A DNA stretch of 64,000 nucleotides from an uncultured Burkholderiales bacterium (GTDB taxonomy: Bacteria; Actinomycetota; Acidimicrobiia; IMCC26256; JAGPDB01), in assembly GCA_964516875.1 (NCBI GenBank), contig CAZFAO010000007.1, positions 1,464 to 65,463 of the forward strand, given 5' to 3'. The position numbers were made by a program, and so were the translations under genes. Below, piece after piece: positions 560 through 14,671 of this stretch. Below the pieces are notes generated by a model that worked only from the letters and a program-made list of their open reading frames with translations, had not been told where the DNA came from and made no database searches. Positions within the stretch are counted from its first letter, which is position 1. Every line of letters starts with the position of its first letter.

Positions 560-3500
560 GTGATAGGGGTTAATGCATCGACGCGACTAAAAACGGGAGT
601 AAACACGCTCACCCGGTTCTCCATGCCGCTCATAATTATCGCAACATTCTTCTCTTTTCTTATCATCAACACAGCTCAAGCGACACCGTATCACGAACTT
701 GTTTTGTCTCCCAGTTACGCACCTGATGAATATGTGACTACGTGGGAAACGTATGTTCCTCCGGGAACCACTGACAACAGAATAGCTATCGCACTCGACA
801 TTGAAAACAGTTCATCTGTTGTCGTCGACTGGGGTGACGGAGCAGTTGAAACCAACGTAACACTCGAGACTCCTTCTCATCTTTATGCCGAGCCGGGCAT
901 ATACGAAATTAAAATTTCGGGTGGTCTGACATACTTTACGACTCTGCGATCTTATGGAAAGCTTCTCTCCGTCGAACAATGGGGATCAACTCCATGGTCA
1001 TACATGGGAGAAATGTTTCGTGGAGCACAACACATTGTTTTTAACGCACTAGATGTTCCTGATCTCAGCAACGTCGCAAGCATGTACCGAATGTTCTTTG
1101 GCGCTTCATCATTCAATTCAAACATCAACAACTGGGATGTATCCAACATCATTGATATGCATGAAATGTTTTCTAGCGCAACAGCATTTAACCAACCGCT
1201 GAACGACTGGGACACATCGAGCGTCACCAATATGAGTGAAATGTTTCACTATGCATCAGCATTTAATCAACCGCTCGATAACTGGGACGTGAGCAATGTC
1301 ATCGACATGGGCTCAATGTTTTGGGGCGCTACAGCATTCAACCAAAATATCAACACGTGGGATACAGGCAATGTCACTTCGACTGGCCACATGTTCGCTA
1401 ATGCGAGTTCATTTAATCAACCGTTAGATCAGTGGGATGTCTCGAACGTTACGTACACGACGGCAATGTTTGAAGGAGCGGCTTCATTCAACCAAAATAT
1501 CAACACATGGAATACGGAAAGCCTGATATCAACTGCCGCAATGTTCGCTATTGCATCGTCATTCAATCAGCCCCTCAACAACTGGGACACATCCAACGTC
1601 ACCGACACCAGAGAAATGTTTCGGGGCGCACGAGTATTTAACCAACCGCTTGACAACTGGGACACATCCAACGTCACCGATATGAGCTCTATGTTTGACG
1701 CTGCATGGGTATTTAATCAACCCCTTGATAGTTGGGATACGAGCAACGTCACCACCATGAGCGACATGTTCTATTACGCAGCAGTATTCAACCAATCACT
1801 CAATATTTGGGACACATCCAACGTCACCGATATGAGTTCTATGTTTTACGGCGCACGAGAGTTTAACCAACAGCTCAACGGCTGGGACACGAACAACGTT
1901 ACAACCATGGCTGAAATGTTTGCTGGGGCAATGTCTTTTGACCAGTCGCTTGCTAGCTGGGATGTATCCAATGTTACAGACATGACAAACATATTTGGCG
2001 GACGCGAGGGTGACGATCCTTATTATGATGCGATTTTAAGTTCCACCAACTACGATGCCACCCTTAGCGCATGGAGCGGACTTACATTACAAGGTAACGT
2101 AACTTTTAACGCACGCGGTTCGTATTATTGCGAGGCTGAAAATGCTCGTGAATCAATTATCACTAACTTCAATTGGACAATCATAGATGAAGGGAAAGAA
2201 TGCCCAATTGAATTTGAAGAAAGCGACCTCTTCATTACGACATGGCAGACCGACAACCCCGGCTTTAGTTATGGCTCTGTGTCTCTCAGCGCAGACGAAG
2301 ACTATTCCTATCGGTACTATGTCGATTGGGGGGATGGAAATACGGACATGAACGTGAAGTCCGGAATTTCTCATGACTATGCTGAACCTGGAGTCTATAC
2401 AGTCAAAATTGCTGGCGATTACCCTCAGTTTGGCGCAAGCCACCTGACAAAGCTTCTCTCTGTTGAACAATGGGGAACAATCCAATGGGAAACCACAGAA
2501 TATATGTTTAGCGAGGCCTTGAATGTCGTTATTAATGCGACCGATATTCCTGATCTCAGTAGCGTGTCGAGCATGGAAAGAATGTTCTATGACATCTCTT
2601 CGATCAATTCGAACATCAACAACTGGGATGTATCCAACGTCACAAACATGAACGGAACGTTTTGGGGAGTCTCTTCGTTCAACCAACCACTCAACAACTG
2701 GGACGTATCCAACGTCACAGACATGCGCGGGATTTTTTGGGGCGCAACGTCTTTTAATCAACCCCTCAACAACTGGGACACGAGCAACGTCACAGACATG
2801 CGCGGAATGTTTGGTTTTGCATCATCTTTCAACCAACCACTCAACAACTGGGACACATCCAATGTCACAGGCATGACCGCAATGTTTGGGGGAGCCTCAT
2901 CCTTCAATCAACCTCTCAACAACTGGGATGTATCGAACGTCACAGACATGAGCGAAATGTTCACTCAAGCCACATCTTTCAACCAACCACTCAACAACTG
3001 GGACACATCCAATGTCACAGGCATGACCGAAATGTTCTCTCAAGCCACATCATTCAATCAACCTCTCAACAACTGGGACGTGAGCAACACCACAAACATG
3101 CTCGGAATGTTTTCAAGTGCTGAAAACTTTGATCAATCTCTTGGCAGCTGGGATGTGAGCAATGCGACCGATATGAGATACATGTTTGGCAACTACGATG
3201 AACTAATTGAAAATGCTATGGGTGATACCCCCTACTCAGAATGGCCAGAATATATTAGAGATATGTACGGCCTTCCCCTATCTGGTCTCTCCGTTGAAAA
3301 TTACGATGACACGCTAAATTCATGGAGTCAACTCGATCTTCTCGACGATATTATCTTCGATGGCGGAACGAGCCAATTCTGTGACGCTGAAGGTGAACGA
3401 CAATCAATAATCTCTGATTTTGGATGGACTATAAACGATGCCGGAAACGGATGCATCACACCAGAAGAAGAAACGCCCCCAACAACCACAGTGGCAACAA

Positions 3501-3895
3501 CTGTTACAACAACTCCCGCTCACGTCACCACGACCCCCACCACAACACCAACTCCGTCGACAATTCCCTCGACAGCGCCCGCGAAAACAGCAACAACAAC
3601 ACCAGGCTCACTGCTCAATTTCCCAGGCAGCAGCACAGATAATCTTCCCGTTGTCAAAGCAGAAGAAGCACTCGAGTACATAGCGAAAGCACAAACAAAA
3701 GCCCTTGCCAAACGAGACGTACGTCAACCATTACTGGGGAACTACTCCCCCACAAACAACAACGCATACGACGCAATCTTGTTGCTCTTGCTAGCACTCG
3801 CCGTCATAGCGTACACGCAGCGACAAAAAATACGTGACATGATTCATCGAGAAAAATCAGTTATCTCTCACCACTCACCACCAAAATGGAAATAG
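560..3895 (+). CDS. Large secreted DUF285/BspA-type repeat surface protein with two [PKD-like VDWGDG module + 25-aa repeat array + Cys-capped domain] units, a Thr/Pro stalk and a C-terminal TM anchor
   Basis: 1111-aa ORF with a GTG start at 560. The N-terminus has basic residues, then a hydrophobic stretch ending AQA, which looks like a signal peptide (an in-frame ATG at 623 is an alternative start). About 22 repeats follow the pattern MFxxAxxFNQPLxxWDxSNVTxMxx, typical of DUF285 / bacterial surface protein ~26-residue repeats. There are two VDWGDG...H.YAEPG.Y.(I/V)KI.G motifs, a TTPTTTPTPST stalk, and a C-terminal helix AILLLLLALAVIAY followed by a basic tail. Confidence 0.85.
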   Translation: MIGVNASTRLKTGVNTLTRFSMPLIIIATFFSFLIINTAQATPYHELVLSPSYAPDEYVTTWETYVPPGTTDNRIAIALDIENSSSVVVDWGDGAVETNVTLETPSHLYAEPGIYEIKISGGLTYFTTLRSYGKLLSVEQWGSTPWSYMGEMFRGAQHIVFNALDVPDLSNVASMYRMFFGASSFNSNINNWDVSNIIDMHEMFSSATAFNQPLNDWDTSSVTNMSEMFHYASAFNQPLDNWDVSNVIDMGSMFWGATAFNQNINTWDTGNVTSTGHMFANASSFNQPLDQWDVSNVTYTTAMFEGAASFNQNINTWNTESLISTAAMFAIASSFNQPLNNWDTSNVTDTREMFRGARVFNQPLDNWDTSNVTDMSSMFDAAWVFNQPLDSWDTSNVTTMSDMFYYAAVFNQSLNIWDTSNVTDMSSMFYGAREFNQQLNGWDTNNVTTMAEMFAGAMSFDQSLASWDVSNVTDMTNIFGGREGDDPYYDAILSSTNYDATLSAWSGLTLQGNVTFNARGSYYCEAENARESIITNFNWTIIDEGKECPIEFEESDLFITTWQTDNPGFSYGSVSLSADEDYSYRYYVDWGDGNTDMNVKSGISHDYAEPGVYTVKIAGDYPQFGASHLTKLLSVEQWGTIQWETTEYMFSEALNVVINATDIPDLSSVSSMERMFYDISSINSNINNWDVSNVTNMNGTFWGVSSFNQPLNNWDVSNVTDMRGIFWGATSFNQPLNNWDTSNVTDMRGMFGFASSFNQPLNNWDTSNVTGMTAMFGGASSFNQPLNNWDVSNVTDMSEMFTQATSFNQPLNNWDTSNVTGMTEMFSQATSFNQPLNNWDVSNTTNMLGMFSSAENFDQSLGSWDVSNATDMRYMFGNYDELIENAMGDTPYSEWPEYIRDMYGLPLSGLSVENYDDTLNSWSQLDLLDDIIFDGGTSQFCDAEGERQSIISDFGWTINDAGNGCITPEEETPPTTTVATTVTTTPAHVTTTPTTTPTPSTIPSTAPAKTATTTPGSLLNFPGSSTDNLPVVKAEEALEYIAKAQTKALAKRDVRQPLLGNYSPTNNNAYDAILLLLLALAVIAYTQRQKIRDMIHREKSVISHHSPPKWK
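1013..2003 (+). repeat. Coding tandem-repeat array 1 (~13 x 75 nt / 25 aa)
   Basis: The translation shows 13 consecutive units starting MF.. and ending ..NVT.M.., with a 75-nt period. Confidence 0.8.
2505..3194 (+). repeat. Coding tandem-repeat array 2 (~9 x 75 nt) with stretches identical at the DNA level
   Basis: 2825-2879 is identical to 2975-3029 (55 nt). The string ttcaatcaacctctcaacaactggga recurs at 2903 and 3053. The string aaccaaccactcaacaactgggac also occurs at ~2681. Confidence 0.85.
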
Positions 3896-3920: not shown

Positions 3921-5312
3921 TCAATAATCGCCATCGCTTACACGTTCGTATACAGATGTGCTCTCGAGTGGATCAGCAAAATCGAGAGTGCACATTTTTT
4001 CTTGTGCACTTGGCCCAAACGAACGAATCACAATCGGTGCATCCAGTGCTTTTTCAATGTGCTCCTCTAGTTCTTGGATGCACGTTATTGTTTCGAGAAC
4101 GGGGGTTGCCTGCGCGCACGCCTGCGCTAAAAGCTGCTGGCGATTTAAATCACGCTTGTTTCCGGGAATGATTCGAGTATTGCCAGAATCTGTTGGCTCA
4201 AAAAGTTCTTCAAAAATATCGACGTCACTGTATTGATTACAGATTTTCCAATCTTGGCCCACCCAATCACATCCGGTGAGAACAATTCCATCAACTCCGC
4301 CTGCCACTTCACAAGCGTAACGATGAGCGACGAGATCTAACCATCCCATGCGAAAACTTCCCTGCCACTCGCCACATCCGTTGTGCATTTCGTTGATTGA
4401 TTCTTCCAGTTTCGGGTCATGTGTCACGAGCGGTCCTGCACCATGACGAGTTGTATATGTTCTCATCACACCCAAGCGCACAACCTCACCATCAAATCCA
4501 ATGTCATTCAACAACGTGAACGCATTTTCGTGCGTCGTTGTACTCCAGGTCGTATACGGATGGAAACCAAACCATTCATCGAGCAACACGCCTTGCGCGC
4601 CCTCAAAAATGATTGTTTCTTGGGCGTGTGTGTGCAGTGCGAAGTCGCGGTTGTTGATAATGAAAACTTTGTCCGCCCATGTTCTGTATTCGCTAGCTAA
4701 TTGTTCGATAAGTGTGTCGTCGGAAAAAAGTGGAGAATCTAATGCATCAAAGTGAACACCTGACTCCGTGCCGAGAAGATGTAGCTGGCCCCGTTTGTAA
4801 TCGCGAAGTTTGCGCAAACGCATTGTGAGATTGCCCGTTATATCTTTAACGCGAAGAACAAGATTGGGTGCATCAAGCGAGTCACATTGCGTCTCTCCCA
4901 CTCCCTGACCACAACTTCCGTGAGCATTGCCGGCCCGATGCGTTTCACGGATGCGATTCATTGATACTTGCCACGGCGTGATGATGAGGGCATCAGAATC
5001 AACACTGGTGCGATCCCAAATATCATGGACGCCAAGGTCGATCAAATGTTGAGCTTCTGTCATCATGTTCAATGGATTGATCAACATGAATCGCGAAAGA
5101 TGTGTACGGGATGTGGAAACAAAACTTCCCGACCCAAATTGTGCAAAGGTGTGATGGCGTCCGTCGGGTGTGATGACATTGTGCGCGGCTTGCGCCCCTC
5201 CGCAATGACGAACAACGAGTGATGATGCGCACTGTCGAGCGAGAAAATCGACAGTCGTTCCCTTACCCGCATCGCCGTACCCGAGATCCGTGACAATAAA
5301 CGCTTTGCCCAT
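3921..5312 (-). CDS. Divergent PurA-family (adenylosuccinate synthetase-like) GTP-dependent ligase, probably not the housekeeping PurA
   Basis: 463 aa. PurA landmarks recognised: GDAGKGT (P-loop GDEGKGK), GGAQAAH (GGHNAGH), FEGAQGVLLD (FEGAQGTLLD), YTTRHGAGP (YSTRVGAGP), GWLD, SFGP (STGP). The GATTGRRRR aspartate loop is replaced by CGEWQGSFR. SD-like AAAGGGA lies upstream of the ATG. Confidence 0.75.
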   Translation of the reverse strand: MGKAFIVTDLGYGDAGKGTTVDFLARQCASSLVVRHCGGAQAAHNVITPDGRHHTFAQFGSGSFVSTSRTHLSRFMLINPLNMMTEAQHLIDLGVHDIWDRTSVDSDALIITPWQVSMNRIRETHRAGNAHGSCGQGVGETQCDSLDAPNLVLRVKDITGNLTMRLRKLRDYKRGQLHLLGTESGVHFDALDSPLFSDDTLIEQLASEYRTWADKVFIINNRDFALHTHAQETIIFEGAQGVLLDEWFGFHPYTTWSTTTHENAFTLLNDIGFDGEVVRLGVMRTYTTRHGAGPLVTHDPKLEESINEMHNGCGEWQGSFRMGWLDLVAHRYACEVAGGVDGIVLTGCDWVGQDWKICNQYSDVDIFEELFEPTDSGNTRIIPGNKRDLNRQQLLAQACAQATPVLETITCIQELEEHIEKALDAPIVIRSFGPSAQEKMCTLDFADPLESTSVYERVSDGDY

Positions 5313-5394: not shown

Positions 5395-6447
5395 CTACAC
5401 GCGAGATGAACCCAATCCTCGACCTGCGTCGACATCGAGATCCGGCAGCGAACCACTCGCGCGGGCAACCTGGCCACCCTTGCTCGGTTTGTTTACCACG
5501 GAAGAATTTGGATCGATGACCGCAAGCGCAGAACCAACAGCTTTGCGTTGCGCGCTCGTTGCACCTAACTCTTTGAGGTCGTCATCGACAATATCTGGCG
5601 TCACTTTGTGTTCAAGCACTCCCACAATTCCCGCAATGGTGTCACACACTGCAGCAGGGTCGTTCAACACAAGAGCGCGTTCACCAAGAAGTTTTCGCCA
5701 TTCCGGCAAAATGTCATCTTGATGGTACATGCCTTGTTCTTGAAAGAGAAAGAACACCTCATATTGTTCTTGCAACTTTGCAAATACCTCAGCAGTGGAA
5801 ACATTTGCCTCCGCGCCGAGACCAGCATATTTTTTCAAGTGTTCTTTTCTCACTTTGTCATACGGCTTTTCATCGCCGATGAAAAAGAGATAGCCCTTTC
5901 GTCCTTGTTTCTCGGCACTCTCAAGATACGTATGATACGCGTGCAAATACGCAAGCAATTCATACGTTTCATGCGTTTGTCCACCTCCGTTGCCCTCCAA
6001 GACCATTGCCTCGAGTTGGGCATCAATTCGGTTGTCGCTTTCAAACTGTCCAAACTGAACCGGAAAGCGATCTGTATAAGCATCACCCGTTGCCGACACA
6101 TTGATTTGCGGATCATCCACATACCCTTTGGTCTGCAACAGCGAAAACAGCTTCGGCAAACTTGCGTGCGTTGTGCGCGCCGCTGCGATGTTCGAACCCG
6201 TCACGTCGAGGACAATTCCTATTGCCGTTGGATTCGGATGTTCGTCGGTAATCATGACTTCCCTCATGACCTGTCCTGCGTGCGGGCTTGTTGGGCCTGC
6301 AACAGTTTTTGCGTCAAGCAGCGCGTTGACCGCACTCGCTCGACCTGATCGGACTTCGTAATCGTGTCCGAATGTCGGAGCGTTCGTCGCCTTTTTGGCT
6401 TTCACGCTCGAGTCGTATGTTCCTACATTCCAGCTTCCGCCACCCAT
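5395..6447 (-). CDS. von Willebrand factor type A (vWA) domain protein with an intact-looking MIDAS
   Basis: 350 aa. It has VLDVTGS (DxTxS), a later EGNGGGQTHE (GGxT) and FFIGDEKP (xxDG/E-like), in the order and spacing expected for vWA. A perfect SD (AAGGAG) lies 6 nt upstream of the ATG at 6447. Confidence 0.7.
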   Translation of the reverse strand: MGGGSWNVGTYDSSVKAKKATNAPTFGHDYEVRSGRASAVNALLDAKTVAGPTSPHAGQVMREVMITDEHPNPTAIGIVLDVTGSNIAAARTTHASLPKLFSLLQTKGYVDDPQINVSATGDAYTDRFPVQFGQFESDNRIDAQLEAMVLEGNGGGQTHETYELLAYLHAYHTYLESAEKQGRKGYLFFIGDEKPYDKVRKEHLKKYAGLGAEANVSTAEVFAKLQEQYEVFFLFQEQGMYHQDDILPEWRKLLGERALVLNDPAAVCDTIAGIVGVLEHKVTPDIVDDDLKELGATSAQRKAVGSALAVIDPNSSVVNKPSKGGQVARASGSLPDLDVDAGRGLGSSRV

Positions 6448-6501: not shown

Positions 6502-7662
6502 TTACCTCACAATCGAATCAGTGAGTTGGAGGGGTCGGAAAACGCGTGGGTGGAACGGCTTTCCGAGGTTTTCGAGTAGGTCATCAAACTCGGCTAAAAG
6601 TCTGAAGGCATTATCAGGTCGCCCCATCTGTGAAGCGACGATGCATCCTTTGAAATGTCGCTGCATGGGGACAGGAATGGAATCAGGAAGTTCACCGGTA
6701 AGAGGATTTCCTCCACAGAGAAAGATCATTGACCGCGCAGCCATGGCGATGTCGGTTCCGGCATTCGGTGATATTTTCTCGGTGACTTCTAAAGGATACC
6801 AGTCGCGATATTTATCAACGACTGCTTGGATAGGAGTAAGAGCAGATTTTTTTTCGGTGCTGGAATAGCACCAGTCGATGAGAATCACGCCATGTTTTTC
6901 TGGCTCAATCAAAATGTTTGTGGGAACAACGGCGCCGTGAACAATTCCGTTGTCGTGAGCAAAACCAATCGCACATAAAAGGCGACGCCAGATCCACGCC
7001 ATGTGCTTGGGATCTAAACCTCGCGGGAAATACTCGTCTTTGAGTTGTGCGAGATTCACAAAGTTCTTGTCAACAAGTGCAATGACATTTGCTTGACGAT
7101 TGGGTTTTCCCGTTTCGGCAAACGCAAAAGAATCAACCAATGTCGAGACAAAGGGGCGCCACTGCTCTTCGGCTGTGTCACTGCCAAGAATACGAAGCGC
7201 TTTTTCTTCTGCTTGCATCAAATCGTTATCAATCGAACTGCGCACAATTTTGACGAGCGTTGGCGTTGTTGCGCCCGCAATTTCTGATTCCGCGAGATAC
7301 ACGTCGGCTATATCCCCTGTGGCAAAACCTTTGATGATTCTGTGTGTTGCGAGTTTTGTCTCAATCTCAGCAAGAGGTTTAACCTCTCCGTAGGTATCGT
7401 TGTTGATTGCGTCGTGAGCTTTGTGGTGCATGTCCGTCATGCGAGTAAATGCTTGTTCTGCAAGCGCCTTTTGGTCAGGATCGGGATAGAGATCAGGATG
7501 GAGAACGCGCGCGATTCGTCGGTACTCGCGATTAAGATTTTTTTGGCGAGTTGTGTTGTCTTTGCCAAGATCACCAAAGATTTCAACGTACGATGTGGCG
7601 TCGAGAACGAGCTTTGCAGCAACTGCTAGCGAATATCCCCCATCGTTGACCACGCAGTACAC
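6502..7662 (-). CDS. J-domain (DnaJ N-terminal-like, HPD present) fused to a protein-kinase-like domain with a degenerate catalytic loop
   Basis: 386 aa with a GTG start. The N-terminus reads SYVEIFGDLG...LNREYRRIARVLHPDLYPD...AFTRMTDMHHKAHDAI, a J-domain pattern with HPD. The C-terminal part carries TLVKIV (VAIK-like Lys), QAEEKAL (alphaC Glu), HDNGIVHGAVVPTNILI (HRDxKxxN with HRD changed to HGA) and ILIDW (DFG changed to IDW). Confidence 0.65.
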   Translation of the reverse strand: MYCVVNDGGYSLAVAAKLVLDATSYVEIFGDLGKDNTTRQKNLNREYRRIARVLHPDLYPDPDQKALAEQAFTRMTDMHHKAHDAINNDTYGEVKPLAEIETKLATHRIIKGFATGDIADVYLAESEIAGATTPTLVKIVRSSIDNDLMQAEEKALRILGSDTAEEQWRPFVSTLVDSFAFAETGKPNRQANVIALVDKNFVNLAQLKDEYFPRGLDPKHMAWIWRRLLCAIGFAHDNGIVHGAVVPTNILIEPEKHGVILIDWCYSSTEKKSALTPIQAVVDKYRDWYPLEVTEKISPNAGTDIAMAARSMIFLCGGNPLTGELPDSIPVPMQRHFKGCIVASQMGRPDNAFRLLAEFDDLLENLGKPFHPRVFRPLQLTDSIVR

Positions 7663-7867
7663 CCCAATCTGTTTTTAGGCATAGAAAAATAGACCTAATT
7701 TTGGTGGTTTCCACCCGTTACTTTTCAGTAACTAGTGATTAGATAGAGAGTAACATCATGTCCGATTTTCGTAAAGGTCCTGGTCACGACGCGTGGCTTC
7801 GTTCATTGCATTTCCGAAATTGAGATTGCGAATTGATGACTTGTTGCATATCACCTAAATTGGTTTA

Positions 7868-10581: not shown

Positions 10582-13500
10582 TTAGCTCGAGGAAGCTTGG
10601 CGCGATTTACGACGACGCAACATCGTCAACTGGAGCAAGAATCCAACACCGATCACTGCCGCAATATCAATGAGCAATAGCGCATTCGATATACCGGTAT
10701 TAGCAAGCTCTCCGCTAATAGACGTTCGAGGCGCAGGAACAACAGTGCTTGTGGGAACAGCCGTTGGAGGAACAGTCGTTGTGGTCGGAACGCTCGCCGG
10801 GTCAATCACCAACCCAAGATCAATTGTGAGATTATCATTTGCATCCGAACCCGTATGGCCTCCTGTTTCACCCGTTGGATTGTTGAGATAGCTCACACTC
10901 AGAATGTTCGTTCTGAAACGAGAACCATCGACAATCAAGTCTTGCTGATCATCTTCATCGACATCATCTGTTGGATCATCCGAACCTTCGGGAGCTTCAA
11001 TGAAGTCGTGCAACGGCCCACCGGAATCAAAGTTAGAAGAATCAAGCTCGATGTAATAATCGCCCGGAGCTACACATTGCACCAACCACCGTCCATCAGA
11101 ATCGGTCGTGGTTGTCTTGGAAAGAACATCGTCTCCCCCACCAATATCACCGTCGATACCAACGGAATACAAGTTCAGTACAACGCCTTCAATTCCTGTG
11201 TCACCAGAATCATATTTTCCATTACCGTTGACGTCATTGAACACTAGGTTGCCGAGATTCAAACACGACGGCGTCACAGCAGAAACATCCGAAGACAACA
11301 CGGGCAAAGCTAAAGCCGTCGCGCGCGCTTGCCAACTGTTGGTGTAGACCTCTTCCCCATCATTGTCATTTGTTTCAAGTTCAAAGTGGAAGAGACCATA
11401 TTGTCCCGCTGTCATCGAAACGGTTTTGATACGGATGGCAGTCACTTCATCTGCGTCAGGACAGCCAGACGTTCCCAGTTGCGAAAATTCACAACTCCAC
11501 TTACCTGTTCCCGCTGCGGGGTTGCTTGAATCATTGGGATCATCGCTCAGCGTTGCAGGATCATCGGATGTGACATAAATTTTGCTGATGAGTCCTGTTG
11601 AAAATGTTTCTTGTGCCATCGTCAACGAGTATCCACCATCGACATCGGAGACAGGCGAACGACCATCGTCGTCGTAAGGAAATATATCGATTCCGTCCAT
11701 GACTTTTGCGCTACCCGTTAAGTTTCCGAACGCAAGCGTGAAGCCCAGTGTTCCATCCAGATCGATGGAAGTGTCGCTGATGTATTTTTCGATATTGAAT
11801 GATTGCGCTGTTGCGATTTGAACCCAGTCGTCATCATAGGGACCTGACGTTGGGTCATAGTGATATGCCGTACCCGTTGTTCGAAACGGAAGTGTCGCGG
11901 GCAAATCTTGCAAACCCTCTTCTGCATCTATCCACGCTTTATTCTGCAGATATGCTGCGTTAGGAATGTAACTGGCAATACGCGTTGTCACTTGGAAATT
12001 ACCAAACAACGTGTAGTCCGTCGCTGGTGTTTCTGGTGATCCACTCTGATCGAATGTGAAATCTCCACGGTCCCAACGAAGAGTTGTGTATCCGTAGTTC
12101 GTTCTCGCTGCGGGATTTGCAATACACGCAAAATTGGCAACGGCATTACAGTCAGTAATAACAGCTGATGGTGTAAGTGTTGCCGATTGGTACACCATTC
12201 CTGGAGGCATGACGTCATAGATATGAACACCTCCGATTGCAACATCAACGTTAAATGACATTCCGGCTTTGATGTTATATGTCCACGTCCCGCCCAGTGA
12301 CACAGAGGCAGCAACATCAACCGCCGGTGACGAATCGTACTTTTGAATGATGGCTGTCGGCTGCACAACAATTGCGCGGTCAGCTAAAGCGATACAACTA
12401 TAGAGTCCCGACGATGCGTTCCAGATATCATTTTCCGGAATACAGGTAGGGTTTGAACCGTACCACGCACCTGAATTGATGTTCGATGCTTTATACCGAT
12501 TGAAGTTGAACATCTTTGTATTTTCAGCCAGTCCAGTTTTTGCTCGAAGCGATTGATACGTTGTGATAGTCATCCCGGGAGGAAGCGCTTTTAAAATTCG
12601 CACGCGCACCAAGTTCACATTCGCCAAACCACCAGGATGCGTAGACGGATCCTCCACCCATGTCAGCGAACCGCTGTCGCAGTTAACAGTGCGCTGTTGC
12701 GATGATGTCGAAAAAGTTGTGCCCGTACTTGCGTATTCGACCACAACATCGGAGTCACCGATCACAGGGAAAGAAGGATCAGGAGTTCCCACTTTGTACC
12801 AGCTATACCACGAATGCGATGAACCGCTCGCGCCGCTGGGGAGCGAAGGTGCTGAGTGTTCAATGAAATTGTATTTTGTTTGGTCAATTGCATCACAGCT
12901 CGTCCAGTCTTCCAGACCATACGCTGAGGTTGTATTGACATCGGCGACTTGCGCTTGCGCAAAGTTCATTCCCGGTGCAACGTAGTTATCGCTATCCCCA
13001 GGACCGAGTGCGCCTTGCGTTAAACCAAGATCAGCTTCCGGTCCCGAACCCACGCGGCCACCATATTCTGTAAAGTACTTCGCGGTCCACGGTCCTGTGC
13101 CAGTGAGGTAATTAAAAACGACACAGTTTTGGTTGTTCGAAACATCATCAACACCTGACGATCCTCCTGTAACGGCAGCATCACCGATGTCATTGCACCA
13201 ACTGATGAAGTTTGCACGAACATCACGGTCGCCCGCTGTTTGGTCAAAATCGAGAATTGTTTGGAAAGGATATTTAATGCGAACTACCTGTGTCGCGACG
13301 GGGGCTTGGTTGTGCAGACCCGCGGGTGAGTTATATATAGAGTTGGATGTCCCTGAGTTATATGCCCAGTAGCTTGTGCGGTTGGTTGATTTTCCATACG
13401 GAAACCAGTCGGGCGACCAGTCAATTCCTGTTGCAGAAATATCGATATCGGTACCTACACCACCCGATTGGGTACATGTCCACGAACCTGAATTTTGGAC

Positions 13501-14385
13501 CGCAAGAATATCTCCCAATGTTAACGACGACGAGTTAGGCAAATACTGCTGGTCACTTGTGACGGGTAGACACCCCACCAACTCGCCTTCGGAGTTGACA
13601 GGAAGTTGTGACGAATCACCAGTGGCGAGTTTGTCATCAAGACTTAATGTGGAAAAAGCTCCAGCGTTAAGACCCTTGACTTGTCCAACTTCAGGAGATT
13701 TCACTTCCGTTTGAACACCCCAGTCGACTTGGATATATTCAGGATCACCAACTCCATCGCGAAGAATAGTGATAGGGCCTTTTTGTTTACGGACTTCGTA
13801 ATCGCCTGCTTCGGAGACAACCTCAACGGTGTCGGTACCTGACGCTTGAGGTGTGGGGTTGGTTCCCAAACTGGCATCAGGAGTCATTGTTGCGCTGACA
13901 GTAAATTGAGCAGTGACGTCGGTTCCATTGGGTACAGATGATTTTCCGAACCACGCACCACTGACGTTAAGAGTTGTTCCAGTAGAGAATGTGCCTGAGA
14001 CAACACAAGTCATTGTTTTTCCGTCAACGCTCAGAGTTTTCGTTCCACATGCACTAGGAAGACTATTGAGCATCCAGGCAACATCAGCGCTGGTTGAAGT
14101 GAGCGTTGCAACAATGGTGACGCCACTTAATTGGTGTGGCGATGCATCCAATGTATTCATGTTGACATCGAACGTGTAACTGGTGGTGTCGAGTGAGGCG
14201 ACTAATCCATTCGACGCATTGGGATCAATGGAAATAAAAGGCGCGGTACCATCGGCTGTTTTGGTCAAAGCTGCTCCGAGCGCTACAACAGGGGGCGCAG
14301 CATAGGCTTTGCGGATAAGTGAAACTGAACATATCGACGTCGCCAGAACGGTGATGGCGATGAGCGCGAGAAGTCGTTTTGACAT
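10582..14385 (-). CDS. Very large LAXTG-anchored cell-wall surface protein (adhesin-like) with a C-terminal SdrD-B/Cna-B-like domain
   Basis: The ORF reaches 14433, but the likely start is M17 (MSKRLLALIAITVLATS...AYA signal peptide). The C-terminus has LANTG (10693-10707), a hydrophobic stretch and RRRKSR, forming a sortase signal. The stretch NLVFNDVNGNGKYDSGDTGIEGVVLNLY...TTTDSDGRW...PGDYYIE matches the SdrD B-like repeat pattern. A TTTTVPPTAVPT stalk is also present. Confidence 0.8.
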   Translation of the reverse strand: MSKRLLALIAITVLATSICSVSLIRKAYAAPPVVALGAALTKTADGTAPFISIDPNASNGLVASLDTTSYTFDVNMNTLDASPHQLSGVTIVATLTSTSADVAWMLNSLPSACGTKTLSVDGKTMTCVVSGTFSTGTTLNVSGAWFGKSSVPNGTDVTAQFTVSATMTPDASLGTNPTPQASGTDTVEVVSEAGDYEVRKQKGPITILRDGVGDPEYIQVDWGVQTEVKSPEVGQVKGLNAGAFSTLSLDDKLATGDSSQLPVNSEGELVGCLPVTSDQQYLPNSSSLTLGDILAVQNSGSWTCTQSGGVGTDIDISATGIDWSPDWFPYGKSTNRTSYWAYNSGTSNSIYNSPAGLHNQAPVATQVVRIKYPFQTILDFDQTAGDRDVRANFISWCNDIGDAAVTGGSSGVDDVSNNQNCVVFNYLTGTGPWTAKYFTEYGGRVGSGPEADLGLTQGALGPGDSDNYVAPGMNFAQAQVADVNTTSAYGLEDWTSCDAIDQTKYNFIEHSAPSLPSGASGSSHSWYSWYKVGTPDPSFPVIGDSDVVVEYASTGTTFSTSSQQRTVNCDSGSLTWVEDPSTHPGGLANVNLVRVRILKALPPGMTITTYQSLRAKTGLAENTKMFNFNRYKASNINSGAWYGSNPTCIPENDIWNASSGLYSCIALADRAIVVQPTAIIQKYDSSPAVDVAASVSLGGTWTYNIKAGMSFNVDVAIGGVHIYDVMPPGMVYQSATLTPSAVITDCNAVANFACIANPAARTNYGYTTLRWDRGDFTFDQSGSPETPATDYTLFGNFQVTTRIASYIPNAAYLQNKAWIDAEEGLQDLPATLPFRTTGTAYHYDPTSGPYDDDWVQIATAQSFNIEKYISDTSIDLDGTLGFTLAFGNLTGSAKVMDGIDIFPYDDDGRSPVSDVDGGYSLTMAQETFSTGLISKIYVTSDDPATLSDDPNDSSNPAAGTGKWSCEFSQLGTSGCPDADEVTAIRIKTVSMTAGQYGLFHFELETNDNDGEEVYTNSWQARATALALPVLSSDVSAVTPSCLNLGNLVFNDVNGNGKYDSGDTGIEGVVLNLYSVGIDGDIGGGDDVLSKTTTTDSDGRWLVQCVAPGDYYIELDSSNFDSGGPLHDFIEAPEGSDDPTDDVDEDDQQDLIVDGSRFRTNILSVSYLNNPTGETGGHTGSDANDNLTIDLGLVIDPASVPTTTTVPPTAVPTSTVVPAPRTSISGELANTGISNALLLIDIAAVIGVGFLLQLTMLRRRKSRQASSS

Positions 14386-14671
14386 AGTTGTAGCTGTAAG
14401 AAGGCGTTCCAACGATATCTCCGTTTTTTCCATCGCTTAATACAATATTTAAGCGTGCATGATTCTATGCGCTTATCACCTATATATTCGGGATATTTGG
14501 CCTCTCAGTTGAGCACATTATTGGGAGATTTGGCCGAAGAAATGGCCCTTTGGCGCATGCCGTATACGCGGCACAGTGTTTTTGTCGTACCCCTGGTGTA
14601 GGGTGATGACTAAGCACCGTTCTTATTGAGCATGAAGCTTTCTTCCCTAAATAATCGTCCAAGGAAGAATC

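Follow-up and report, generated by a model that had tools for sequence, protein, structure and literature searches.

A predicted substrate-shifted relative of adenylosuccinate synthetase in a conserved operon of bacteria and large phages

Introduction

In adenylosuccinate synthetase (PurA; EC 6.3.4.4; PF00709; the E. coli structures are PDB 1ADE and 1CG0), transfer of the gamma-phosphate of GTP activates the O6 of inosine monophosphate (IMP). The only characterised precedent for neofunctionalisation in this fold is PurZ of the Z-genome phages. A PurZ survey (NAR 2026) lists 481 phage homologs matching PF00709 and assigns 147 of them to PurZ; the rest are not discussed. The subject of this paper is a further PurA homolog, encoded in a 64,000-nucleotide stretch of contig CAZFAO010000007.1 (assembly GCA_964516875.1; hereafter the window), together with the two genes that precede it, one for a protein with a von Willebrand factor A (vWA) fold and one for a J-domain protein with a kinase-like fold. 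Our literature search found no account of the function of this PurA-like family or of its operon, only genome announcements and papers on PurZ.

Two other bodies of work bear on the locus. NrtR proteins repress NAD synthesis and respond to ADP-ribose (Rodionov et al., 2008; PMC2330246). For phages, the literature on NAD+ reconstitution describes the pathways NARP1 (Adps and Namat), NARP2 (NadV and NMNAT) and NARP3 (PnuC and NadR). We argue here that the window protein is very probably substrate-shifted and not an adenylosuccinate synthetase, judging from profile scores and from the residue pattern of its family. A fuller statement, to which we would give about an even chance, is that it uses GTP to ligate a non-acidic nitrogen nucleophile to C6 of a purine, within a module linked to NAD and ADP-ribose.

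Homology and residue map of the PurA-like family

The homology to PurA, which the first-pass annotation of this sequence had proposed from motifs compared by eye, is far beyond chance. PF00709 (Adenylsucc_synt) matches residues 7-438 of 463 with an E value of 7.6e-57, and solved PurA structures from many organisms, including E. coli, match with E values from 4.9e-28 to 1.7e-13. The scores against curated models are below the cutoff in each case: 147.7 bits against 402 for NCBIfam NF002223 and 135.4 against 395.55 for TIGR00184, both PurA equivalogs, and 45.9 against 300 for NCBIfam NF038379, the PurZ model. The phage family phrog_1211 matches with an E value of 1e-76. Apart from this open reading frame (ORF), no second PurA is found in the 64-kb window.

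The family is large. An exhaustive HMMER search of 1.84 billion cluster representatives (clusters at 50% identity) returned 2,623 PurA-like proteins at E <= 1e-30. Members share 37-46% identity with the window protein, 26-35% with E. coli PurA and 18-26% with PurZ of phage PhiVC8. The named bacterial members belong to Actinomycetota, Chloroflexota and Saccharibacteria; the phage members in INPHARED come from 201 Mycobacterium phages (Bixzunavirus), 10 Rhizobium phages and 6 Vibrio phages. Depositors have labelled members 'PurA-like adenylosuccinate synthetase', and the phage members carry the RefSeq/PHROG 1211 label '2-aminooxy adenylosuccinate synthetase' (e.g., NC_023737.1, Pleione gp268; NC_070966.1, RHph_TM30 gp019). 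The latter is probably a systematic mis-annotation, because the phage sequences keep the Asp equivalent to Asp13 of PurA and lack the PurZ signature.

Family members were aligned with authentic E. coli PurA and PhiVC8 PurZ in two samples, the first of 203 members taken from database matches and genomic loci, the second of 144 further representatives of 50%-identity clusters. Residues are numbered as in mature E. coli PurA, and paired counts below refer to the two samples in that order. HMMER and MAFFT alignments agree with the register that the first-pass annotation had set by eye, and all the motifs that it quoted, from GDAGKGT to TGCD, are found at the implied places (Table 1).

Judged by these alignments, the machinery for binding GTP and for transferring its gamma-phosphate to an oxygen near Asp14, His44 and Gln240 is complete. 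The P-loop Asp and Lys are present in 202/203 and 143/144 members. The D13 position is Asp in 345 of the 347 family sequences, that of the window included, and Ser in PhiVC8 PurZ. The equivalent of H41 is His in every sequence (203/203 and 144/144), that of Q224 is likewise invariant (203/203 and 144/144), and that of D333 is Asp in 201/203 and 142/144. Taken together, D13, K16, H41, Q224, T239 and D333 are all at least 98% retained in both samples. Also essentially invariant are G12-D13-x-G-K16-G, E221-G-A-Q224-G, R272/G274/G276/P277, G308 and S414-x-G-P.

The substrate contacts present a different picture. We take R131, T300, T301, R303, R304 and R305 to be the ligands of L-aspartate in E. 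coli PurA, and N38, T129, T239 and R143, the last from the dimer partner, to be those of the IMP 5'-phosphate. The window protein does not provide the aspartate set, and of the four phosphate ligands only T239 is kept, with N38, T129 and R143 changed. Most replacements are uniform across the family. N38 is Gln (window position 41) in 202/203 and 141/144 members, T42 is Asn (45) in 198/203 and 119/144, and I126 is His (131) in 202/203 and 134/144. In the same region T128 is Ser (133) in 203/203 and 124/144, T129 is Cys (134) in 172/203 and 135/144, and P135 is Glu (140) in 201/203 and 128/144. Further on, S240 is Trp (256) in 200/203 and 123/144, and V273 is His (290) in 202/203 and 144/144. 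The R131 and R143 positions are variable and have no conserved replacement; the window protein has Q136 and A148 there. The loop G-A-T-T-G-R-R-R-R reads G-x-(W/Y/F)-Q-G-x-(F/W)-R in the family, with both threonines (T300, T301) and three of the four arginines (R303-R306) gone; the Arg that is kept is R321 in the window protein. The two alignments place the one-residue deletion in this loop one column apart, which leaves the register of the Arg run ambiguous, but the losses are the same either way.

On this evidence the aspartate-specific features of the pocket are all gone and a conserved His/Glu/His/Trp/Trp/Phe set has been gained. Because the replacement residues are themselves conserved, the acceptor pocket appears as one that is rebuilt under purifying selection and not lost. 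The first-pass annotation was right that the ligands in the GATTGRRRR loop are replaced, but 'lost' was the wrong word for a loop whose replacement motif is conserved in the family. It had also allowed that a proper alignment might find the aspartate and IMP contacts conserved after all; the alignments confirm their replacement. Its general proposal, a GTP-dependent PurA homolog with a changed amine and/or nucleotide substrate, thus gains support from the scores, the separate family and the residue pattern. A glutaminase-like triad of Cys134, His and Glu was considered and ruled out, as the Cys position is Val or Thr in about 6-15% of members, including those at loci L006, L011 and L005.

The first-pass annotation had pointed as well to the length of the protein and its acidic C-terminal tail. 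The tail and part of the extra length are indeed peculiar to the window protein, but they are not a family trait: after the S-x-G-P motif the family has a median of 13 amino acids (aa), compared with 14 aa in E. coli PurA. Being unique to the window protein, the tail was ruled out as a family feature and as a ligand of the metal ion-dependent adhesion site (MIDAS) of the vWA partner.

Two kinds of variant were found among family members. In Kitasatospora (L019, L021, L071), the C-terminus of the PurA-like protein is fused to a CxxC...CxxC zinc ribbon and a NUDIX domain whose Nudix box is intact, an architecture that resembles NudC. In P0474 (800 aa), an intein interrupts the protein at HGF/C...GN/SPYTTWS, beside the Thr aligned to the IMP-phosphate ligand T239.

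Operon architecture and gene linkage

In the window the three genes lie on the minus strand in the order J-domain/kinase-like (386 aa), vWA (350 aa) and PurA-like, with 54 bp between the first two and 82 bp between the last two. The vWA protein matches phrog_2971 (E 1e-110) and the kinase-like protein phrog_3043 (E 6e-64). Linkage was followed with the vWA protein as the probe, since its matches cannot be mistaken for canonical PurA. Among genomes taken one per species, the vWA partner is encoded in at least 577 bacterial species, mostly Actinomycetota, with others in Chloroflexota and Saccharibacteria, and at least 520 IMG/VR contigs encode it, many of them from phages of 100-450 kb.

The linkage is close in both scans, as counted in the best 80 matches of each. 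Among the genome loci, the vWA gene is followed directly on its strand by the PurA-like gene in 78 of 80 and has the kinase-like gene upstream in 73 of 80. Among the viral contigs, the PurA-like gene is on the strand of the vWA gene in 78 of 80 (within 400 bp in 54), and the kinase-like gene is present in at least 53 of 80. The same order is seen in mycobacteriophage Patter (Bixzunavirus; gp263-264-(265)-266), in a Saccharimonadaceae genome, in an Acidimicrobiia-labelled metagenome-assembled genome (MAG) that is syntenic with the window (L007), and in a bacterium with a 3-Mb contig. The kinase-like gene is missing from Rhizobium and Vibrio phages and from some Nocardia, where only the pair is present. 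The core of the module is the vWA/PurA-like pair, to which the kinase-like gene is often added.

Some loci depart from this plan in other ways. L016, from a Roseiflexaceae MAG, is one of only two linkage exceptions among the 80 genome loci; its kinase-like and vWA genes come with tandem NrtR boxes (described below), and no PurA-like gene lies within 6 kb downstream. In Bixzunaviruses an extra 88-aa ORF (Patter gp265; L001:5726-5992) lies between the vWA and PurA-like genes; gp265 has no Pfam match and no counterpart in bacterial operons. A PADLOC scan gave no match for the PurA-like or vWA protein and only weak generic kinase matches, to PD-T4-6, for the kinase-like protein, and on this ground a catalogued defence system was ruled out for the module.

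The vWA partner and the J-domain protein

No Pfam domain is found in the vWA partner at the sequence level. The fold assignment comes from an AlphaFold 2 (AF2) model, with a predicted local distance difference test (pLDDT) score of 85, which Foldseek matches to integrin I-domain/vWA proteins with an E value of about 1e-6. The MIDAS residues D81-x-T83-x-S85, S/T161 and D192 are at least 99% conserved in 275 partner sequences. Residues 1-7 have pLDDT values below 50, i.e., they are predicted to be disordered. The N-terminal pattern consists of M1, G2 (274 of 275), G or S at position 4, an aromatic residue at position 6 (275 of 275) and another at position 11 (about 98%), and it is kept even in phage copies of only 30% identity. 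The partner P0218 (Mycobacterium phage, 595 aa) carries an intein at KGY/C...N/CIFIGDE, beside the MIDAS Asp. The inteins of the enzyme and of the vWA partner both interrupt conserved motifs, which is consistent with functional importance of those motifs.

The AF2 model of the kinase-like protein (pLDDT 94) has its best Foldseek matches in PIM1 and PknB, with E values of about 1e-11, and in GRK2, and shows an N-terminal helical bundle. The Pfam scores are below cutoff for both parts, 22.2 against 31.7 for Pkinase and 18.1 against 27.8 bits for DnaJ, so profile support for the J-domain is weak. In 40 homologs the HPD motif is nearly invariant, and K135 (beta3 Lys), E149 (alphaC Glu) and D260 (DFG-equivalent, in 'IDW') are conserved. 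The catalytic loop reads H-G-A-V-L-P-x-H/N family-wide, with Ala in place of the HRD Asp in at least 90%. Since the HRD Asp is Ala and the beta3 Lys, alphaC Glu and DFG Asp are kept, the protein should be a nucleotide-binding pseudokinase or atypical transferase, and it should recruit DnaK.

Table 1. Positions in the window of the operon genes, their motifs and the upstream palindrome
Feature	Position	Strand	Remarks
PurA-like GTP-dependent ligase (putative)	3921-5312	(-)	463-aa ORF; last gene of three-gene operon
P-loop GDAGKGT	5256-5276	(-)	D14, K17 = E. coli D13, K16; retained
GGAQAAH	5181-5201	(-)	catalytic His44 = H41, retained; N38 to Q41
HGSCGQGVGE, remodelled IMP/Asp loop	4893-4922	(-)	I126 to H131, T128 to S133, T129 to C134, R131 to Q136, P135 to E140
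FEGAQG	4590-4607	(-)	Q240 = Q224; retained
HPYTTWS	4542-4562	(-)	T255 = T239, retained; S240 to W256
TRHGAGP	4431-4451	(-)	V273 to H290
CGEWQGSFR, rebuilt 'aspartate loop'	4350-4376	(-)	E. coli GATTGRRRR; one residue shorter
GWLD	4335-4346	(-)	coordinates confirmed
TGCD	4266-4277	(-)	guanine-specificity Asp349 = D333; retained
vWA-fold partner, cytoplasmic, 350 aa	5395-6447	(-)	phrog_2971; AF2 and Foldseek
MIDAS DVTGS	6193-6207	(-)	vWA partner
MIDAS FIGDE	5869-5883	(-)	vWA partner
MGGGSW N-terminus	6430-6447	(-)	conserved, predicted disordered
J-domain and Hanks-type kinase fold	6502-7662	(-)	first gene, 386 aa; database gene call starts at 7653
HPD	7492-7500	(-)	J-domain, residues 55-57
HGAVVPTN catalytic loop	6916-6939	(-)	HRD Asp = Ala
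LVKIV, beta3 Lys	7243-7257	(-)	kept
LIDW, DFG-equivalent Asp	6871-6882	(-)	kept
Palindrome AGTTACT-N4-AGTAAC	7712-7737	.	about 60 bp upstream of operon; window and L007

Linkage to NrtR and to NAD and ADP-ribose metabolism

Clustering of the genes that neighbour the bacterial loci gave one dominant family, proteins of about 250 aa with NUDIX and NrtR winged-helix domains by Pfam. The nrtR gene abuts the operon in 70 of 82 bacterial loci, nearly always on the same strand, either ahead of the kinase-like gene or behind the PurA-like gene. The linked NrtR proteins are mixed in their REUxEE Nudix box, which is kept in 26 of 70. In phage contigs nrtR is rare (6 of 80).

A candidate operator accompanies the genes. 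The palindrome TAGTGT-N7-ACACTA, with up to two mismatches, occurs 33 times in 1.06 Mb of loci, compared with 10.9 times in shuffles, and contains the GT-N7-AC core of reported NrtR operators. Twenty of the 33 boxes are within 250 bp upstream of the first operon gene, often as tandem pairs, and are spread over three phyla; the 11 loci that have them belong to Saccharibacteria, Chloroflexota, Corynebacterium and another actinobacterium. At L006 and L171 the operon lies among pncA, pncB, nadE, a nadD-like gene and a NUDIX-APH gene, and the same box fronts the pncA/pncB and nadE/nadD divergons. In these two loci and in L172 and L173, all of the Saccharibacteria type, nrtR is convergent beside the operon. 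Phage copies have other neighbours of this kind: NUDIX and phosphoribosyltransferase (PRTase) genes in Rhizobium phage TM30 and a NADAR gene in Vibrio phage Va1, the last also present in the bacterial locus L170.

The operon leaders contain no Rfam family, whether riboswitch or other known RNA, and are conserved only between close pairs. The leaders L170:4560-4710 and L172:4560-4703 have in common a hairpin-like stretch (GCAGGACTTCTCGCC..AGGCTTGAGAAGACCG) between the NrtR box and the start codon; it has no Rfam match, and its conservation does not extend to other lineages.

In the window and in L007 the operon is preceded by a palindrome of another form (Table 1), with the letters CACCCGTTACT/AGTAACTAGTG in the window (core GTTACT-N4-AGTAAC) and AGTTACTAAAAAGTAAT in L007. 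It is not conserved in the lineages with nrtR, and may be the operator of another regulator that replaced NrtR. Table 1 of Rodionov et al. (2008; PMC2330246) lists an uncharacterised NrtR2-regulated pair 'nrtX-nrtY' in Streptomyces, Frankia, Kineococcus, Proteus and Hahella. These genes may or may not overlap with the PurA-like operon.

Proposed function and its alternatives

The residue pattern suggests that the PurA-like enzyme most likely uses the chemistry of PurA, namely, GTP-dependent O-phosphorylation followed by displacement by nitrogen. Because D13, Q224 and T239 are retained, GTP would phosphorylate the 6-oxo (lactam) group of a purine nucleotide. Because the pocket, positive in PurA, is aromatic and partly acidic here, the phosphate would be displaced by a nitrogen nucleophile other than an acidic amino acid, most simply ammonia or an amine that is neutral or cationic. 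This would yield adenosine monophosphate (AMP) or an N6-substituted adenine nucleotide. The changes in the 5'-phosphate ligands suggest a nucleotide that differs at its 5' end, and it may be part of a larger molecule, for example a dinucleotide or one of the ADP-ribose type. The vWA partner would serve as an obligatory scaffold, regulator or substrate carrier, and the J-domain protein would link the complex with DnaK. A rise in ADP-ribose, i.e., NAD+ consumption, would switch the module on, and large phages would carry it in order to manipulate or replenish this nucleotide pool when they infect. Among the specific versions of the nucleophile, a small-molecule amine or ammonia is our default.

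Several points weigh against this proposal. The residue roles were transferred from E. coli PurA by alignment only, on the basis of its published structures and mutagenesis. A purely metabolic role leaves the need for a vWA protein and a J-domain pseudokinase unexplained. NAD genes near the phage copies are modest in number (NAMPT in 5 of 80, Prs-like genes in 3 of 80). The window and its syntenic relative L007 have no nrtR by tblastn and no NrtR box near the operon, and for this reason the link to NAD holds for the window locus by homology only. The locus counts, being those of the best matches, describe that sample and not the whole family, and ORF starts are over-extended in high-GC loci.

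Of the alternatives, the one that fares best, although we consider it unlikely, is that the enzyme is a protein-directed ligase: the N-terminal Gly of the vWA partner, its alpha-amine freed by removal of Met1, would attack the activated C6 and yield an N6-(peptidyl-glycyl)-AMP adduct ('N-terminal purinylation'). The enzyme and the partner are obligately co-encoded, and the N-terminus of the partner is disordered in the model yet keeps Gly2 in 274 of 275 and the aromatic position 6 in all 275 sequences. The enzyme has also exchanged the residues for the two carboxylates and the side chain of aspartate for bulky aromatics, which would favour an uncharged peptide amine without a side chain. However, docking or regulation could account for the conserved N-terminus just as well, and in the copies from Rhizobium and Vibrio phages no co-variation is evident between position 6 and the aromatics of the enzyme. 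Control by NrtR and the NUDIX fusion indicate small-molecule nucleotide metabolism instead, and we know of no PurA-family enzyme that acts on protein. If true, N-terminal purinylation would be a previously unknown post-translational modification, switched by ADP-ribose via NrtR in bacteria and used by large phages in infection.

The link to NAD allows a more direct role, rebuilding of NAD+ itself, which we hold to be improbable. GTP would phosphorylate the anomeric 1''-hydroxyl of ADP-ribose, and nicotinamide bound in the aromatic pocket would displace the phosphate. This would suit control by NrtR and ADP-ribose and co-regulation with pncA, pncB, nadD and nadE, as well as carriage by phages, which are known to rebuild NAD+ by other pathways (NARP1-3). 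The acceptor pocket is rich in aromatics, and its remodelled phosphate contacts could suit a diphosphate-linked substrate. However, the scheme is entirely inferential, its chemistry does not need the purine-lactam residues D13 and Q224 that are strictly kept, and it leaves the vWA protein and the pseudokinase without a role; in phages, NAMPT and Prs-like genes are found nearby only occasionally.

It is no more probable, in our judgement, that the protein has given up ligase chemistry and acts as a GTP-driven switch or chaperone partner of the vWA protein, in the manner of MoxR-vWA pairs. The phage MoxR-vWA pair combines a P-loop NTPase with a vWA protein in a chaperone architecture, and such pairs are recurrent beyond it. 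The J-domain protein in the operon implies proteostasis, and the vWA MIDAS is invariant. Against this, D13, Q224 and T239, which in PurA act on the acceptor and not on GTP, are invariant too, the new pocket residues are under strong purifying selection, and the NUDIX fusion argues for nucleotide chemistry.

That the protein is still an adenylosuccinate synthetase, a divergent isozyme that holds aspartate and IMP with other residues and supplies AMP for NAD synthesis, is very improbable. The homology to PF00709 is full-length, the catalytic core is intact, public annotations name adenylosuccinate synthase, and the gene is in the NrtR regulon beside ATP-consuming genes of NAD synthesis. However, R131, T300, T301 and three of R303-R306 are gone and Glu140 has appeared in the same region; the score is 148 bits where the equivalog cutoff is 402; and no adenylosuccinate lyase is linked in any locus inspected. 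Nor would a housekeeping enzyme require the company of a vWA protein and a pseudokinase. Moreover, the phage hosts and the actinobacterial genera that carry the family presumably have their own purA.

Least credible of all is a role like that of PurZ, in which the product would be a modified (deoxy)purine nucleotide destined for hypermodified phage DNA and the bacterial copies would be prophage remnants: the label of the phage homologs, the abundance of the family in large phages and the deletion of one residue of the Arg run in PurZ too would speak for it, but PurZ has Ser for D13 in all phage sequences, whereas the PurA-like family keeps Asp, PurZ keeps N38, T129, T239 and R143 and still uses aspartate, the NF038379 score (45.9, cutoff 300) and identity to PhiVC8 PurZ (18-26%) are low, and the bacterial copies are in ordinary chromosomal contexts under NrtR control, not in prophages. 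As a precedent for a substrate-shifted PurA homolog, which is how the first-pass annotation had used it, PurZ holds only loosely for the same two reasons, its use of aspartate and its Ser at D13. No DatZ, MazZ or DpoZ gene is beside the window copy or in the Bixzunavirus locus; a systematic search for them was not made. L170 has a YfbR-like HD gene upstream.

A GTP-dependent purine-C6 ligase acting with a non-acidic nucleophile remains our preferred reading. The family would be a second functional offshoot of PurA, after PurZ, which revealed new DNA chemistry, and a much larger one. Once worked out, the reaction would most likely define a product that is new, whether a nucleotide or a protein-nucleotide, bring a further component into NAD/ADP-ribose homeostasis or the phage-host conflict over NAD, and correct thousands of 'adenylosuccinate synthase' and 'PurZ-like' annotations. 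Bxz1-like phages and hosts (M. smegmatis, Streptomyces, Nocardia) can be cultured, so the system is directly testable.

Surroundings of the operon in the window

The window is ordinary chromosome, with genes for Ffh, SMC, RecG, GTP-PEPCK and UvrD. On the plus strand, 560-3895 encodes a 1111-aa protein whose two halves, near-duplicates of each other, consist of DUF285/BspA-like 'NxWDVSNVT' repeats; at its end are a Thr/Pro-rich stalk and a hydrophobic anchor. Just upstream on the same strand, the short ORF 141-398 ends in nearly the same anchor (...AILLLL.ALA.I.YTQR.KIRD.IHREKSVISH.SPPKW.), which suggests, from the sequences, a cassette-like family of surface proteins with a common C-terminal anchor. 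On the minus strand, 10582-14433 encodes a 1283-aa surface protein with an N-terminal signal-like segment, a C-terminal 'ELANTG' sortase-type signal and a hydrophobic tail; its syntenic counterpart in L007 has a weak SdrD_B match. The order surface protein, Xer-type recombinase, sigma factor, operon is common to the window and L007.

Comparison with known systems

The PurA-like protein has in common with PurA the fold, the P-loop, the catalytic Asp, Lys and His, the Gln of EGAQG, the guanine Asp and the S-x-G-P motif. Unlike the PurA-like family, PurA has neither an operon with vWA and J-domain pseudokinase genes nor NrtR control. PurZ/PurZ0 of the Z-genome phages (NF038379) is likewise a PurA homolog that is phage-carried and substrate-shifted. 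The two shifts are opposite: in PurZ the nucleotide has changed, to deoxyguanosine monophosphate (dGMP), the aspartate and phosphate ligands are kept and D13 is Ser, whereas in the PurA-like family D13 is kept and the amine pocket appears rebuilt.

The partners of the enzyme recall other systems. The TerY-P triad (vWA, Ser/Thr kinase, PP2C) also has a cytoplasmic vWA protein encoded with a Hanks-type kinase fold, but no PP2C is present in the Pfam-annotated gene tables of the loci inspected, and the PurA-like module is not TerY-P. With the ARG/Nudix-TF/vWA systems (Iyer et al., 2022) the module has in common a vWA protein, an ADP-ribose-sensing Nudix-HTH regulator and an occurrence in bacteria and large phages. 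It differs from these and from MoxR-vWA systems in having no MoxR AAA+ protein or ADP-ribosylglycohydrolase, and its kinase lacks the catalytic Asp and has a J-domain. The descriptions of TerY-P, of MoxR-vWA and by Iyer et al. (2022) mention no PurA homolog. With the NrtR regulon it has in common adjacency to, or regulation by, NrtR and, in Saccharibacteria, co-location with pncA, pncB, nadD and nadE. Like NARP1-3 it is carried by lytic phages, but it contains none of the NARP enzymes. The general picture that emerges is that of a known kind of enzyme in variant form, within an undescribed module.

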